This document shows positions 46,763-56,364 of a stretch of DNA of 64,000 nt, one piece after another. Origin of the DNA: an uncultured Desulfobacter sp. (GTDB lineage: Bacteria > Desulfobacterota > Desulfobacteria > Desulfobacterales > Desulfobacteraceae). The notes beneath the pieces are model-generated. The model saw only the letters and a program-made list of their open reading frames with translations, ran no database searches and was not told where the DNA came from. Position 1 is the first letter of the stretch. Every line of letters starts with the position of its first letter. The translations under genes and the position numbers were made by a program. Location: assembly GCA_963665095.1 (NCBI GenBank), contig OY762069.1:64001-128000 (forward strand), in the 5' to 3' direction.

Positions 46763-46814
46763 TCTTAACGGTTCAAAATCACCGGCTTGCCCGTGTGAAT
46801 TTTGTTTGTTGAAA
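46763..46814 (-). other. attC-like site (somewhat degenerate)
   Basis: Minus strand TTTCAAC..AATTCAC..GGTGATT..GTTAAGA, 8 nt after the ATPase stop codon. Confidence 0.6.
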
Positions 46815-48039: not shown

Positions 48040-48087
48040 TTTTAACGTGAAAATCACCGGTTTATCCGGTGCATTTTCTGGTTAGAA
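48040..48087 (-). other. attC-like site, 48 bp
   Basis: TTCTAAC-N5-AATGCACC-GGATAAACC-GGTGATT-N5-GTTAAAA; one unpaired base at L'' position 4. Confidence 0.75.
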
Positions 48088-49023
48088 TTAAGTATTGTGT
48101 CCCCCGAATTTCCCGCATCTCCAATCAGACCGGGCCTCTTTTTTAAAAACTGTTCTCACCTTATCCATAAAGCTTCTCAAAATAGGCGAGATCCATTTTC
48201 CCCGATACCATATCATCAAGACAGCAGTTTCAAGGGGCTCCTGTTCCCAATTCAGAGATGTCAGGTTACCTTCAGAAATCTCTGCTGCCGCTGCAATATC
48301 GGGCATTATGGTAATTCCGAGACCCTTTGAGACACACTGTTTAATCGCCTCTATACTGTTCATTTCCACTAAAGATGCTGTTTCAATTTTTTCTTGCATG
48401 AGCCACTGTTCAACAATCATCTTATAACTGCAATCATGCTTAGGTAAAAAGACGATTTCACCAGATAAATCTGTAATCAAAACGCTTTTCTTTTGGGACA
48501 GGTAATGAGTAGGGGAAGCAAACATTGCCAGAGTTACTGTTCCTAAAAACTCAGTTTTCAGTTCTGAAAAATCAACAGAGTCAGCCAACAGAAAAGCAAT
48601 GTCGGTAATTCCGGATTTAAGCTCATTGGGCAGGTTTTGATATTCACAGCTAGCCACGTCAAAGTCTATATTGGGATAGGATTTGTAAAATTCCTGTAGG
48701 ATATCAGGAAGAAAATAGGTTCCAAGGGTTTGGGGAATTCTTAAAGACAGTTTCCCTTGGGGTGTTTTTACTTCAGAAACTGTTGCCAATGCTTCTTTTT
48801 CCATCGCACAGATTTTCTGTGCATATTGTACCAGATCCCTGCCAGCCCCTGTTAATTCAATGGTTTTTCCCTTCCTCTGAAAAAGGCGCTTTCCTAACTC
48901 CTCTTCCAAAATTTTAATCTGGGCAGATATGGTGGACTGGGCATAGTTCAATGTTTCGGCAGATTTTCTAAAATTGAGCAACCTCGCCACAGTTAAAAAG
49001 GTCTTCAGGTTTCGGATCTCCAA
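48088..49023 (-). CDS. LysR family transcriptional regulator
   Basis: LKTFLTVARLLNFRKSAETLNYAQSTISAQIKILEEELG. Confidence 0.93.
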   Translation of the reverse strand: MEIRNLKTFLTVARLLNFRKSAETLNYAQSTISAQIKILEEELGKRLFQRKGKTIELTGAGRDLVQYAQKICAMEKEALATVSEVKTPQGKLSLRIPQTLGTYFLPDILQEFYKSYPNIDFDVASCEYQNLPNELKSGITDIAFLLADSVDFSELKTEFLGTVTLAMFASPTHYLSQKKSVLITDLSGEIVFLPKHDCSYKMIVEQWLMQEKIETASLVEMNSIEAIKQCVSKGLGITIMPDIAAAAEISEGNLTSLNWEQEPLETAVLMIWYRGKWISPILRSFMDKVRTVFKKEARSDWRCGKFGGHNT

Positions 49024-49204
49024 GCAGCCCCCTCTGATCATAAAATTCGATCAAAAGCTTCAATTAATTTCATTGGACACAAAAATATCGATAATATATA
49101 CAGGCCTGAAAATCAAATACTTTTTGTGGACATTTAAAATGTTCGGTCTGACGATGTCTTATGACAGACGTCATTTACTATGAAAAAAGAAAAAGGAGAA
49201 AATC

Positions 49205-49726
49205 ATGAAAAAGCAAGTATCTTTAACATTTTTGCTGATTGTTAGTATCGTCTGTTCTATTCCATTGGCGGCCTTGTCTGGAGAAAACCCTCCGCCTTAT
49301 CAAGTAAAAGTTAAAAGCCGTGAAGTAACAAACAGGATTGTTGAATCCTATGTCCGAGGCCATAAGGTGTTGGCAGATCAGCCTAAAAATTTTGGAGCCG
49401 ATGATTTGGCACCGACCCCGCCGGAATACTTGGCCGTAGCCTATAGCACCTGTGTTGTATCCACCCTTCGGTTCGTGGCGATGCTGGACAAGCTGGACAT
49501 CAAAAATATTGAAGTCCAAGTGGAAGGAGAGGTTGACTTCTCAAAAGCAATGGGGCTTGATACGACGAAAAGGGCTGGACTTTTTGGCTTAAATGTCAAG
49601 ATCAGCTTTGAGTCGACCATGACCAAAAGCGAACAGCAAGCATTTGTCGATAAAGCAATGGAACGGGGTGCTGTTCTTGACAATGTTCGTAACAAAACAC
49701 AAGTCTTATATGAAATTATAAACTAA
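49205..49726 (+). CDS. OsmC/Ohr-like protein with signal peptide
   Basis: DQPKNFGADDLAPTPPEYL...C; second Cys absent (ERGAV). Confidence 0.85.
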   Translation: MKKQVSLTFLLIVSIVCSIPLAALSGENPPPYQVKVKSREVTNRIVESYVRGHKVLADQPKNFGADDLAPTPPEYLAVAYSTCVVSTLRFVAMLDKLDIKNIEVQVEGEVDFSKAMGLDTTKRAGLFGLNVKISFESTMTKSEQQAFVDKAMERGAVLDNVRNKTQVLYEIIN

Positions 49727-49841
49727 TTTGAAATACCGGCTTTTATTTATACTCTGCAACGCGACAAATCACGGGTCGGGTGCAAATTGGGTCAAATGGG
49801 GTACATTGTCAATGACCGCACAAAATTGATCCAGTTGCCCA

Positions 49842-49930
49842 AAAAAACGTTGAGTTAAGCGGAAAAATTATAACCCAAAAACAACGTAAAACCCGGCGGG
49901 TACTTTTCCGTCTTCAACTCTTTGTTACAT
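49842..49930 (-). other. attC-like site, 89 bp
   Basis: ATGTAAC-N5-GTTGAAGA-CGGAAAA...TTTTCC-GCTTAAC-N5-GTTTTTT. Confidence 0.72.
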
Positions 49931-50186
49931 TAACCGGGTCGAAGCCTCGCAGTTGATTTCTTGGGTAAAAGCAGGGGAATCCTTATTTTCAAACTTAGAT
50001 TTAACAGCACAGATTCTAAAATTTGCCTGGTAAAATTGAGTGAGCATTAAGATTCTTCCTTCTACTTAATCCGGTCAGGCTTGAAAAAGAGCCGAAAAAC
50101 CTGGTACCGGAGCGGATTGCCGATACGAGTCCCTGACAGGGAACTGCCTATTTTGATATCGGTAATTGTTTCCAAAGTAAAGCTTT

Positions 50187-51419
50187 TTATAGTTCCCCTG
50201 ATTTAGCCGGAATTTGCTTGGCCTTGGTTTTTGGTAAGTCGTCTTTCACCACGTTGCCATGACCGTCCAGCACCAGGATCGTTATCATGTTCCCTTTGCC
50301 GCAGGCCGGGCATTGAGGCGTCTGTTCTTTCAGGGGTTCAGGATCAGGGGTATCCCGGTCATTCAATGCCTGGCGTATTTCCGATATATTTCGTCCTGCC
50401 TGCCCGTTGGCCAGAAACCCATAATATCTGATCCGATGAAAGTGTTTTGGAAGAACATGCAAAAGGAAACGATCAATGAAGCTCATTACCGGTAAAGAAG
50501 TTGTTTCCCACTTGGATTTATTCCGGGTGTTTTTAAACCAGAACTCCACAGTCTCGTTGTTAACGGATATAATCCTGTTGTTGCTGATGGCTGTTGAATG
50601 GGTGTATCTACCGATATATTTAACGACTTCGGCTGGACCTGAGAATGGTGGTTTGGAATATACCACCCAGTCTTTTGGAGCGGTATGGTACAGCCATTGC
50701 CTGAATGCGCAGGGTTTTGAAAGATGAGCCAGTTCATCCGGGATGTTTAATCGTCCTCGACCGTGGGCTGCAATAAGGCCGCTAAGGAACTTTGCCCTGA
50801 ATACATTTGAAAGCGCTTTGACCGGAAACAGGAATGTTGAGCTGTACTTGGGCTCCACCCATTCCCCATAAGTGTTTATTCCGCCTGCAGTGACAATGAA
50901 ATGGATGTGGGGATGCAGCCAGAGTTTGCCGCCCCAGGTGTGGAGGATACCGTAGAACCCGATCTTGGCTCCAAGACGCTTTGGATTCTCCCCGAATTCC
51001 AGCAGGGTCTGGGAGGCGCTTTCAAACAACAGGTCATACATTACCCGCCGGTTGAACCGGCACAAAGGGTTGAAGATATCCGGCAATGTGAAAACGCAGT
51101 GGTGATAGGACACCGGAAGCAGATCGTTGATCCTGGCCGTCACCCATCTGTGACGGGCGATATTGTTTCAACCCGGACAATGGCGGTTCCGGCAGGAGTT
51201 GTATCCTTTTTCAAGGTGGCCGCATGTGTCGCATAGCTCCCAGTGGGTGCCAAATTCTCCGCGTCGACAATGCTCGATATCGTACATAACCTTGTGTTGC
51301 CTGGGGTGCAGGCGGTGTGCTGATCTGAAGGGAGGACCGTATTTTCTAAATATATCTCCGACGCTTGGACCGGTTTCGGGTTTTTCAGGGAGCTTGGTAT
51401 GGCTGCAAAGTGTTTTCAT
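50187..51419 (-). pseudogene. IS91-family (HUH, Y2) transposase with one in-frame TGA at 51168-51170
   Basis: NSCRNRHCPG*, HCVFTLP, LHTWG...HPHIH, YIGRYTH, RIRYYGFL; both ORF-track pieces are in the same frame. Confidence 0.9.
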
Positions 51420-51442
51420 CGGTTATCGAAGCCCGCAGCGTA

Positions 51443-51552
51443 GGAGAACGGGAGGCGCAGGCTGCAATGATTTATGACAGGCGTGGCATTTGCGCAGTTT
51501 GCAAATGACATGACTGGCAGAAATCTTGCGTCTGGGCGTCCCCCCGTTCTCC
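51443..51552. repeat. ~110-nt imperfect palindrome upstream of the IS91-like transposase
   Basis: GGAGAACGGG...CATTTGC/GCAAATG...CCCGTTCTCC. Confidence 0.75.
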
Positions 51553-51674
51553 GGAAAAGTTTGCACCATAGATTATGAAGTCCTTATTTTATAGGCGTTT
51601 CGAGCTCTGCAGTTGGCTTCAAGATGTTGCATTCACCGTCCAGGTTTAATGTAACGTCAAAATCTGCGGTTTAT

Positions 51675-53803
51675 GCCAGGTAGCCGGGGACCGTTACCGG
51701 TCCCAAGCCCCTTAAGAACCGGACGTGAGACTTTCACCTCATCCGGCTCAAGCATTGATAAGGCGTGTTGCCACACCCAACAGTTGTCTTCGTTTCCAAC
51801 GAGCTTTGAGATAGTCGGCCCATGCAGGATCGTACGGGTTAACATTCGCTCTAATCTTGATATGTCTGGTAAGCCGGGTCGCGCCTAGTAAAATCAGGGG
51901 TTCGGGATTACCTTTTTCCATGAATCGCCAGTCTCGACCTTTGATTCTCCGGTAATACTTGTTTTTAACCCATCCTTTAGATTTCTTTGGATGCCTTCGC
52001 CTGGCCCATTGCCATGTCATTTGCCAAAATGCATGGTCCAAATCCCCAAACACCTTCCGGCTTACGACGTGTTTGTAATAATTTGCCCAACCGCGTATGA
52101 TACTATTCAGTTTGGCAATAACAACATCGGTTCGCAGGGTTTTATTGGCATGCAGATAGTCTCTGACTTTCGCTTTTATGCGTTTAATGCTGGATTTTGA
52201 AGGTTTTATCAGAAGTTTGCCTTTGTATTTTCTGACATTGAAGCCAAGGAAATCAAAGCCATCATCAATATGTGTGATAATGGTTTTCTCTTTTGATAGT
52301 TCAAGTCCCCTTATTTTAAGGAACTCTTCGATCAAAGGCTTGACTTTATGTTTGAGCATTTCCGGAGAACGGCCCGTTACAATGAAATCATCAGCACACC
52401 TGACAAAATGAATTTTGTCAGGCTTCTTGAAGTTATCATCAAGGAGGGGCTGGATACCGTCAAGAGCCATATTGGCAAGCGTCGGTGAAATTATTCCACC
52501 CTGTGGAGTCCCTTCATTTGTCGAATTAAATATATGTTTCTCAAGATAACCGCACTTGAGCCATTGTTTTAATTTCTTCTTGTTCATGGGAATGTTTTCA
52601 TCCAACCATTTATGATCGATAAAATCAAAACAGCCTTTGATATCTGCCTCTAAAATCCAGTCAGCACTACCTTTCCGTCTTAACGCATTGTAAATCGCTC
52701 CTATGGCATCCTGGGCCGAGCGGACTTTCCTGAATCCATAGGAATGATGATCCGCTGTGGATTCAGATACCGGATCAAGCCCTAATAAATCAAGGGCCTG
52801 TTCCACCCGGTCATGCATGGCCGGTATGCCTAATGGTCGTTTCTTACCATTTTTCTTTGGGATATAAATACGTTTCAGCGGCTTAGCCTTATATTCGGGA
52901 AGATTAAGATTCTTGAGCGTTTCCCATCGCTTCCGAGGTGTATCAATTAACATATTGTCAACACCTGGGGTTCGTTTTCCACTATTGGATATTACCCGTT
53001 TGATAGCAATAAGTTTTGCCGCAAGCGAGTTGGACAGCAGCCTTTGAAGGCCGCGTACCTTTTGTTTTAATCCTTGCTTAACTGCCTTCACGATACGCGC
53101 TTGTATACGGAATACTGTCTGTCTGTGCTTATCCCAGTCAATGAGATCCCACACATTCTTCAAGCCCATACGGCCGTCAACATCATGTAATGATATCATC
53201 CATCCACACCAGTATAGTTATTCCGTTCAAATCATTTCCCGTGATTCAACACCGTGCCGGAAGTCTGCACACTTTCGTGTCCGGGCAAATTTTGAACCCG
53301 TATCTGATCCATTACAGAACAGCATTCGCTTTCTCCAGCGTTCCTCTACCCGCATCCCCATAGGCCACCCTTGCGGCTGGCTGTCCTTACGGGGAAGGAG
53401 AGATACGGGCTTACCAAGTTCCACTTTCAACACACAATGGGTTAGCGTCTGTCTATCCGCCGGAGGGATCATTGATTACGTGAAGCAACTACGGAATACT
53501 CCAACCATACCTCTTGCCTTTTGGCCCAGGCCTGTCAGCATCTTTGGCCTGTCAAACATAACGACGTTTATTAACAGTTCACATATGTTACGCATACCAT
53601 CGTTCCTAGCTCCCATCCGGGTTGATGCTCCCAGAGTTGAGGTCCTCTTACGATTATCTCTTCCGGCCATAGGCCAAGGGCTTCATTGTCATCCGGGCTT
53701 CACACAAAAACATTACTGCTAGTGCATGCCGGAGTAGAAAACTGCCGGTAATACGGCAGGTTGGGGCGAGCCCAACATTATTAAAAGCGACTTCTTGTCG
53801 CAA
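51675..53803 (-). mobile_element. Group II intron, full length, IIB-type (has EBS2)
   Basis: 5' TTGCGACAAGAAG; domain V GAGCCGGATGAGGTGAAAGTCTCACGTCCGGTTC; domain VI ending CTACCTGGC; EBS1 at 53489-53494 and EBS2 at 53554-53560 match the 5' exon. Confidence 0.92.
51748..53199 (-). CDS. ltrA: Group II intron reverse transcriptase/maturase, no HNH domain
   Basis: RPLGIP, DIKGCFD, GTPQGGIISP, RCADDF, FDFLGF, IRGWANYY. Confidence 0.93.
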   Translation of the reverse strand: MISLHDVDGRMGLKNVWDLIDWDKHRQTVFRIQARIVKAVKQGLKQKVRGLQRLLSNSLAAKLIAIKRVISNSGKRTPGVDNMLIDTPRKRWETLKNLNLPEYKAKPLKRIYIPKKNGKKRPLGIPAMHDRVEQALDLLGLDPVSESTADHHSYGFRKVRSAQDAIGAIYNALRRKGSADWILEADIKGCFDFIDHKWLDENIPMNKKKLKQWLKCGYLEKHIFNSTNEGTPQGGIISPTLANMALDGIQPLLDDNFKKPDKIHFVRCADDFIVTGRSPEMLKHKVKPLIEEFLKIRGLELSKEKTIITHIDDGFDFLGFNVRKYKGKLLIKPSKSSIKRIKAKVRDYLHANKTLRTDVVIAKLNSIIRGWANYYKHVVSRKVFGDLDHAFWQMTWQWARRRHPKKSKGWVKNKYYRRIKGRDWRFMEKGNPEPLILLGATRLTRHIKIRANVNPYDPAWADYLKARWKRRQLLGVATRLINA

Positions 53804-53965
53804 CCGTAGTATGTTTTTGTTAGGGGAATCTCAATTCTTATTCATTTTTGTGTTTAATCAATTCAACAGCTGTTGCATATCTTCAATAACAACCAGTAGT
53901 TGCCCTCATCCTGAACAATCCCAACCCCACCTTGATACACCTGGAAAACTTAATTAATTTTATAA

Positions 53966-54225
53966 GTGTGTAATGGCCAACAGGCAATAAGCAATATTAA
54001 TGTTTACAAACCGCGTACCCCCAAAGAAAGCGCATATTACAAGCGTGTTGAGAATCATTTTGAAGAGTTGGAACGGGTGTGGGATGATATGTATACCCCC
54101 CGATACGGCTATTGGCGAACATACGTCATGACCGTAATTTACAGATATCTCGATTGTGGAAATCTTCATATGGGGTTTGCCAGGGTCCGCTGTGAAGAAT
54201 GCGGCCATGAGTACCTCCTGGCATT
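53966..54225 (+). pseudogene. IS91-family transposase zinc-binding N-terminal fragment
   Basis: YKPRTP...YRYLDCGNLHMGFARVRCEECGHEYLLA then unrelated sequence. Confidence 0.75.
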
Positions 54226-54435
54226 AGCATGTCGTTCAAACTACACCTCCTTTTGTTATGGCATATTGAAAAATCGAATGCCGGGCTGTGTCGCTAATTG
54301 CCACAACCGCCGGGTGCTTGAGTATACACTCCACACAGATGGCGTAAAATTTTTCTTTAATGTTGTCATACCTGCTGATAACCTCTACCTGGTACTGGGT
54401 TTCCATAGGACGAGGAATAGCGTTTACCCGTTACC

Positions 54436-54735
54436 ATGAAAAACCTTTCCCTGTATGGGTCTCTTTCCTACAACAGGTTCTACTTTGCCCAGGACATTGA
54501 TAACGCCTCCGGCGGCAAGGTTTCCGTTGACGGCCAACAGGTACCGGGTGCGCCGAAGTTTCTCGCCAAGGGGATTGTCAGTTATACAATCGGGGATTTC
54601 ACCCTGTCTCCCAGTGTAAAATACTTTTTCGAGAGATACGGCGATGTCCTTCATCGGGAGCGGATTGATGATGCGGTGATTTACGATTTCGACCTGAGCT
54701 ATGCAACGACCCTGCCTCGGTTCAAGATCAAGAAA
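54436..54735 (+). pseudogene. TonB-dependent receptor barrel fragment
   Basis: NLSLYGSLSYN...VPGAPKFLAKG...YDFDLSY; no N-terminus and no terminal strand. Confidence 0.65.
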
Positions 54736-56019: not shown

Positions 56020-56084
56020 GTCCCTTTTTTATCCGCAGAATCTGCTGGCGTATCCCTGCCACGGGTATGCGCCGGTTTCAAAGG

Positions 56085-56245
56085 CTATGGCAGGTCTTCT
56101 GACTTCCGGATCATCCTAATCTGCCGCGCCTTCCCGTCCTTAAACAGTGGCATTTTGCGGTGTTCGTCCCCGGTTACAGCGGCGGGCCCATCCCTGATTC
56201 TCACAGGGTTCCCTGTTCGGCTTTAAACAGCACCATCACCTGTAT
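56085..56245 (-). ncRNA. Cobalamin riboswitch
   Basis: GGTG...AGGGAA...GTGAGAATC...GCCCGCCGCTGTAA...GCCACTG...GGGAAGG...AGTCAGAAGACCTGCC. Confidence 0.93.
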
Positions 56246-56364
56246 GATTTATGAGCCATCAGATATATCCGTAAACTGCGGATACTGTCAAGTGATTTGT
56301 TAACTATTTGAATTAGTTGAAAAAATTAAATAAGTTGCAACGGAAAATCATTTTTCTTGACATT

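Follow-up and report, generated by a model that had tools for sequence, protein, structure and literature searches.

A group II intron in a 64,000-nucleotide stretch of DNA from an uncultured Desulfobacter sp. (referred to here as the window) was located inside an attC site. Very probably, this intron belongs to a clade of IIB1 introns with endonuclease-less CL1 proteins that has specialised on attC by EBS pairing; most of the members found here come from sulfate reducers of the same class as the window. The features on which this reading rests are listed in Table 1.

Table 1. Features of the split attC site, its intron, and the neighbouring cassettes in the window
Feature	Position	Strand	Basis and remarks
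Intact 52-bp attC	46763..46814	-	After AAA_14/DUF4143 gene; fold, profile
Intact 48-bp attC	48040..48087	-	Immediately after LysR stop codon; fold, profile
Adjoining cassette with ORFs for an IS91-like Zn finger and Y2 transposase	49848..51654	-	Pfam; own 89-bp attC at 49842-49930
attC 3' half	51649..51674	-	Loop, L' 51661-51667, spacer, R' 51649-51655; fold, cassette copies
Domains V and VI	51675..51751	-	Rfam, fold; bulged A at 51681
IEP, RT/maturase of CL1 type, 483 aa	51748..53199	-	Pfam, PDB best match 6ME0, tree
CADD, Cys codon replacing Tyr of YADD	52396..52398	-	Sequence, relatives, other samples
EBS3 (U)	53455	-	Pairs with IBS3 at 51674; co-variation
EBS1	53489..53494	-	6/6 pairs with IBS1 (53804-53809); sits in loop of stem
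EBS2 (53554-53558) and EBS2a (53560)	53554..53560	-	Pair with 5' exon positions -13 to -9 and -14
attC 5' half	53804..53825	-	R'' 53819-53825, spacer 53814-53818, L'' 53806-53813, 2 nt; sequence, fold, profile
IS91-like element, non-coding end and truncated transposase start	53826..54225	+	Abuts R''; Pfam Zn_Tnp_IS91 53966-54439

The original prediction had placed at 51675-53803 a group II intron that was not of the IIC type and carried an EBS2, and this was borne out. Read on the minus strand from 53803 to 51675, the segment was a complete group IIB1 intron of 2129 nt, of which the genome held one full copy by blastn. The Rfam model group-II-D1D4-7 (RF02012) matched domain I of the intron at 53609-53760 on the minus strand with 109 bits, and DV-DVI (RF00029) matched 51675-51751 on the same strand with 61 bits, the end of the match falling exactly on 51675. 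Domain I, domains V and VI with a bulged A, and an RT/maturase ORF were all present. The consensus for group II intron ends is GUGYG/AY, from which the window intron departs; its ends were UUGCG and GC, and both these and consensus-type ends occurred among its relatives. Pfam searches of the IEP detected RVT_N, RVT_1, and GIIM as the only domains and no endonuclease family. In a search of solved structures, the best match was 6ME0 with 479 bits, compared with 133 bits for LtrA and 123 bits for GsI-IIC; 6ME0 is classed in the available part of PMC8643678 as IIB1, with an RT of the CL1 type. The prediction had also proposed a check of the IEP against class C, and in this comparison, whose references lacked curated D, E, or CL2 members, the protein grouped with CL and not with C or ML. 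In place of the intact YADD of CL1 proteins the window IEP has CADD, with YADD in 7/8 aligned relatives and YTDD in 1/8. Position 52397 was T, giving a Tyr codon, in sample runs X3 and X9 and had the window letter (Cys) in X1 and X4, indicating that CADD is a strain-level change. Through this recent Y-to-C change the RT of the window copy is probably impaired, with a presumed loss of activity. A 51674-53804 joint, which would mark either splicing or an empty allele, was detected in 0 of 4 contig runs of unknown kind, and just 5 to 6% of the words were present in RNA runs.

Rejoining of the flanks in script recovered a 48-bp attC, in agreement with the prediction, with the intron in the top strand 2 nt behind L'' and, as had also been proposed, in the orientation of the cassettes. 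The site had the R''-L''-L'-R' spacing, AAC and GTT, and an extrahelical base, and its L box contained one mismatch and one wobble. In the fold of the rejoined bottom strand, an R box and an L box were formed, together with one extrahelical base and a loop of 5 nt. This fold was weak, at -4.9 kcal/mol, and 2.7% of 1000 mononucleotide shuffles were equally stable; by comparison, the intact 48-bp site folded at -11.9 kcal/mol, and 0% of its shuffles were equally stable. A short-attC profile (HMM) built without the split site scored that site at E=9.8e-7; at E<0.005 it recovered another 12 genomic sites, including one within the intI array. Furthermore, an uninterrupted attC was present behind the same upstream flank at five loci in three genomes (L332, L333, L340, L341, and L342), and the right half of the L341 site was identical to the window 3' exon up to GTT. 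The location of the intron inside an attC was thereby confirmed.

The crossover point of the split site falls between 51655 and 51654. Behind three different attC sites, three copies of the adjoining 49848-51654 cassette began at an identical TT, and the G/TT end was shared by four copies. This recurrence of one G/TT amid different neighbours indicates, indirectly, that R' of the split site is a real crossover point. The R'' of this cassette was the exact complement of the R' of the split site. In an X9 contig with a depth of 3, position 46765 was joined to 51652 at the split-site G/TT with intron sequence attached, a join that fits recombination of the loaded site and, equally, independent homing.

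The array in the window is a CALIN that extends beyond the window end, and the sole intI over the cut-off lies at C1:910 kb, ~790 kb from the split site. Of the four genomic copies of the IS91-like cassette, one lay in the intI array, and the window copy was broken into two ORFs. No cassette gene was present upstream of the split site; the upstream flank was a truncated IS91-like end, as judged by Pfam and by comparison with L332, L333, and L341, in which the ORFs at this flank are longer. The same end adjoined the R'' of differing attC sites in several genomes (L332, L333, and L340-L343) and would represent an element that targets attC or, alternatively, a cassette with an inverted transposase. 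Between two attC sites, at 48088-49847, divergent LysR and OsmC genes formed an unusual two-gene cassette. Sites of 46 to 52 bp formed an attC family scattered through the genome (G000) at a distance from intI, and these fall below the textbook attC minimum of ~57 bp. A cobalamin riboswitch was detected at 56072-56252 (Rfam, 114 bits) among AraC regulators, TonB receptors, and methyltransferases.

Relatives of the intron were collected via intron sequence and not via the flank. The class-wide search scored two candidates per genome, making copy numbers lower bounds. Junctions were retained if they had at least 24 nt of flank and no N; a flank that recurred unchanged within one genome contributed a single count, and the EBS counts omit three hosts with nested introns. 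Eighty distinct 5' junctions were obtained; 16/80 were aimed at other introns and 64, from 31 sources, were not. The AAC of R'' was present at -18 (40 junctions) or -19 (17 junctions) in 57/64, against a background of ~2.9%, and was absent from these positions in 7/64. Removal of the Desulfamplus MAG G001 left 40/45 junctions with AAC at -18 or -19. Sites were scored with our own heuristic (L box plus GTT) and our own HMM in place of the IntegronFinder attC model that had originally been suggested. Among rejoined sites with both ends, 23/36 passed the heuristic, compared with 223/5000 random AAC positions (4.5%) and 141/1090 cross-genome swaps (13%); of the failing sites (13/36), some had a decayed R', some had unmatched halves, and some contained no attC. 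Passing sites ranged from 47 to 89 bp in length, and insertion was 2 nt after L'' in 21/23. The predicted location in the central loop held for short sites and not as a general rule, since 15/23 passing sites were 68 to 89 bp long and were also cut just behind L''; what stayed fixed was L''+2, not the apex. Such arrays were adjoined by an intI over the cut-off in G001, G275, and G387. As judged from these junctions, which come from related and thus not independent genomes, attC insertion behind L'' is a lineage-level trait.

Copies of <1 kb accounted for 18/36. An ORF-less, unannotated copy of 853 nt was detected in the same register between cassette-like genes on D. autotrophicum plasmid NC_012109.1 (58804-57952). 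G001 contained ~20 copies, mostly ORF-less (among them L156, L159, L160, L162, and L163), with twintrons nested in domain I that had a retargeted EBS1 and with one tandem pair; the unmatched halves of junction pairs in this genome suggest recombination between copies. A metagenome scan returned one close member (L252) among 79 loci, and 71 more distant CL1 loci had other targets, R'-type ones apart, according to automatic, uncurated 5' end calls. CL1 introns of Vibrio and Shewanella (L044, L050, L058, L060, L064, L065, and L085) often had a TAAC-like motif ~16 nt upstream of the junction.

EBS1 and a 7-nt EBS2 segment had been predicted as exact complements of the 5' exon. Full complementarity was found for both; the 7-nt segment, however, was not a single EBS2. 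Under the IIB1 rule given in the available part of PMC8643678, an EBS2a-IBS2a pair forms at -14 and an A lies 3' of EBS2a, so the segment consists of EBS2a, an A, and a 5-nt EBS2. The EBS1, EBS2, and EBS3 pairings of CL1/IIB1 introns were thus accompanied in the window by EBS2a-IBS2a, a pair that was Watson-Crick in 32/51 of all introns, with the adjoining A in 51/51. When introns were matched to their own sites, EBS1 and EBS2 scored 5.0 and 5.0 of 6, as opposed to 3.2 and 2.8 on the sites of other genomes (35 introns, 18 sources). When each source contributed a single intron (n = 18), 0/20000 permutations reached either value, a figure inflated by relatedness, and 17 distinct EBS1 sequences were present. 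EBS2a paired with -14 in 23/33 introns outside G001, with 2/20000 permutations as high, and of 29 EBS3 pairs read by eye, 24 were Watson-Crick and 2 wobble, with mismatches in the other 3. Co-variation of EBS1, EBS2, EBS2a, and EBS3 with the site indicated that the intron reads primary sequence, and this pairing requires the 5' arm of the attC hairpin to be open. Together with the AAC register and the rejoined sites, these results supported the proposal that attC is targeted through base pairing.

In the proposed mechanism, EBS1 would pair with distal L'' plus 2 nt, EBS2 and EBS2a with the spacer and proximal L'', and EBS3 with the next base. As attC arms vary, guide loops would mutate and be re-selected on new attC families, and ORF-less copies would probably be mobilised in trans by the protein of a full copy. 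An A was present at -15 in 47/57 junctions and at -18 in 57/57, the latter following from the definition of the set. The EcI5 protein reads -18, -17, and -15 (PMC2882425, in the part available), which makes a contact of the IEP with the R'' end plausible, and the IEP may also read the A-rich end of R'' (-18 to -15). The one-base AAC shift in 17/57 junctions argues for a register set by pairing to L'' and makes a fixed protein contact less likely. Replication-strand bias was examined as the basis of the top-strand choice and rejected: by GC skew (40- to 60-kb flank), 7/14 localities were on the lagging and 7/14 on the leading template, the window being on the leading one.

The first tree was built after removal of 17 redundant loci, and later tree tests used 32 rows. 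The L''+2 proteins fell within a 19-row set with an SH-aLRT of 95, and this set included a subclade (L017, L168, L180-L183, L191, L193, L203, L205, and L209) aimed at other introns. Its members were inserted, with a matching EBS1, antisense into domain V of group II introns (11 junctions), and several were ORF-less. R'-type CL1 introns formed a separate set with a support of 100 that took in the genome's second intron at C1:929 kb. This second CL1 intron (L012; G000 C1:928329-930700) belongs to the intI array, where it directly follows the R' of a 126-bp attC. A single clade of the sampled R'-type and the L''+2 introns was rejected with a p-AU of 5e-10, obtained in a quick search with 2000 replicates, too few according to a program warning. 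A clade of attC members without the domain V subclade had a p-AU of 0.50 and was not decided by the data. The trees supported the predicted independent IIB lineage. R' introns were also present in a single attC of L247, L248, and L341, and the L247 and L248 sites held an L''+2 intron as well; L247_11118 is the other intron, positioned at R'. Two intron lineages share one attC in L247 and L248.

The same pattern could have arisen from a single entry into attC, with descendants persisting in a repeated, intergenic, and tolerated site while other insertions were purged and no true specialisation took place. We regard this as unlikely, although it is the most serious of the alternatives: the AAC register slips by one base, L019 and L166 lie at non-attC sites despite good EBS pairing, the sister subclade is aimed at domain V, and in T. 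elongatus the EBS are known to have drifted towards new sites (PMC2882425, available passages). It would have to accommodate the retention of the register across proteins just 58 to 63% identical and across attC families of 47 to 89 bp whose arms share little beyond R''; furthermore, it alters the cause (selection instead of recognition) and leaves the pattern unchanged.

Recognition of the folded attC hairpin, as reported for IIC-attC introns, would also account for attC as the target, and the top strand is foldable too; the available part of PMC7923331 speculates along these lines. With IBS1 and IBS2 within the 5' arm of the stem, however, EBS pairing competes with the hairpin, and both the full co-variation of the four guide elements and the copies with matching IBS at non-hairpin sites make this explanation improbable. 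Least credible, and very improbable in our view, was a split site that is no functional attC but the end of an IS91-related element or a short repeat of another kind. The IS91-like sequence on either side, the distance from intI, and the weak fold are compatible with such a repeat, but sites of the same family follow unrelated genes and mark exact G/TT junctions, relatives occur in arrays adjoining intI, and one profile match lies in the genome's own intI array. Overall, specialisation on attC by EBS pairing remained the favoured reading.

Reviews present attC targeting as a habit of class C introns that is based on DNA structure. A IIB1/CL1 intron at attC is already in print once, UHB.I2, described in the available part of Sonbol and Siam 2021 (PMC7923331) as a single intron that lies 'immediately after' an attC and is oriented like the cassettes. 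It resembles the window intron in its IIB1 RNA, endonuclease-less CL1 protein, UUGCG start, and orientation. In the passages covered, UHB.I2 is one copy without an EBS3 bulge, its exons are poorly conserved, and it comes without lineage or register analysis, whereas the window intron lies inside attC and has EBS3; UHB.I2 is known to us from this description and is absent from the tree. No report of insertion behind L'' was found in the literature searched, a scope that excluded most subscription papers. IIC-attC introns such as S.ma.I2 are likewise an attC-specialised, endonuclease-less lineage, but the available parts of PMC3001079, PMC4424553, and PMC7923331 place them in class C, in the bottom strand at R'' (TTGT/T), opposite to the cassettes, with a hairpin replacing IBS2; one IIC intron in the attC top strand is cited in PMC7923331. 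In contrast, the window lineage has a CL1 and not a class C protein, occupies the top strand at L''+2, and possesses an EBS2 that co-varies with its target. The IIB1 introns of T. elongatus and EcI5 share the CL1/IIB1 type, EBS-diversified families, ORF-less copies mobilised in trans, twintrons, and EBS2a-IBS2a; according to the passages available (PMC2882425 and PMC8643678), their targets are other than attC, whereas the window lineage diversifies its EBS and keeps its attC position. The R'-targeting CL1 introns (C1:929 kb, L032, and L034) share the attC top strand and the same hosts but insert in or behind R', have ~47% identity to the window lineage, and form a separate clade.

Insertion at L''+2 leaves all four attC boxes intact, and the terminal loop alone grows, by 0.8 to 2.1 kb. 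In replicative conditions, long attC loops can cost as much as 4 logs of recombination, a loss that does not occur after conjugation (PMC8946536, available passages). The enlarged loop is likely to damp IntI recombination strongly with no box destroyed, loops of 0.8 to 2.1 kb lying outside those covered in those passages. Complete blocking of cassette excision, along the lines originally suggested, is hypothetical. Since IntI acts on DNA, any function of the predicted restoration of attC in spliced RNA would be hypothetical. A broader picture, speculative and rather doubtful as a whole, is that an intron in the one attC spot that spares all four boxes leaves a loaded site able to fold and recombine from single-stranded DNA, so that the intron travels as cassette cargo; same-register copies would reshuffle attC halves and cassettes without IntI, and a protein anchored on R'' with reprogrammed EBS loops would amount to a natural attC-directed targetron.

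These results describe a CL1 clade that holds a fixed position in a barely conserved site by re-tuning four RNA-DNA pairings. Taken together, the L''+2 lineage and the R'-type clade suggest that IIB introns have colonised attC independently on more than one occasion. The lineage offers a natural data set on how target choice is divided between EBS reprogramming and protein contacts, and a natural test of the attC loop length tolerated by IntI. Any damping of cassette shuffling by the introns would in turn shape how evolvable the integrons of these bacteria are.
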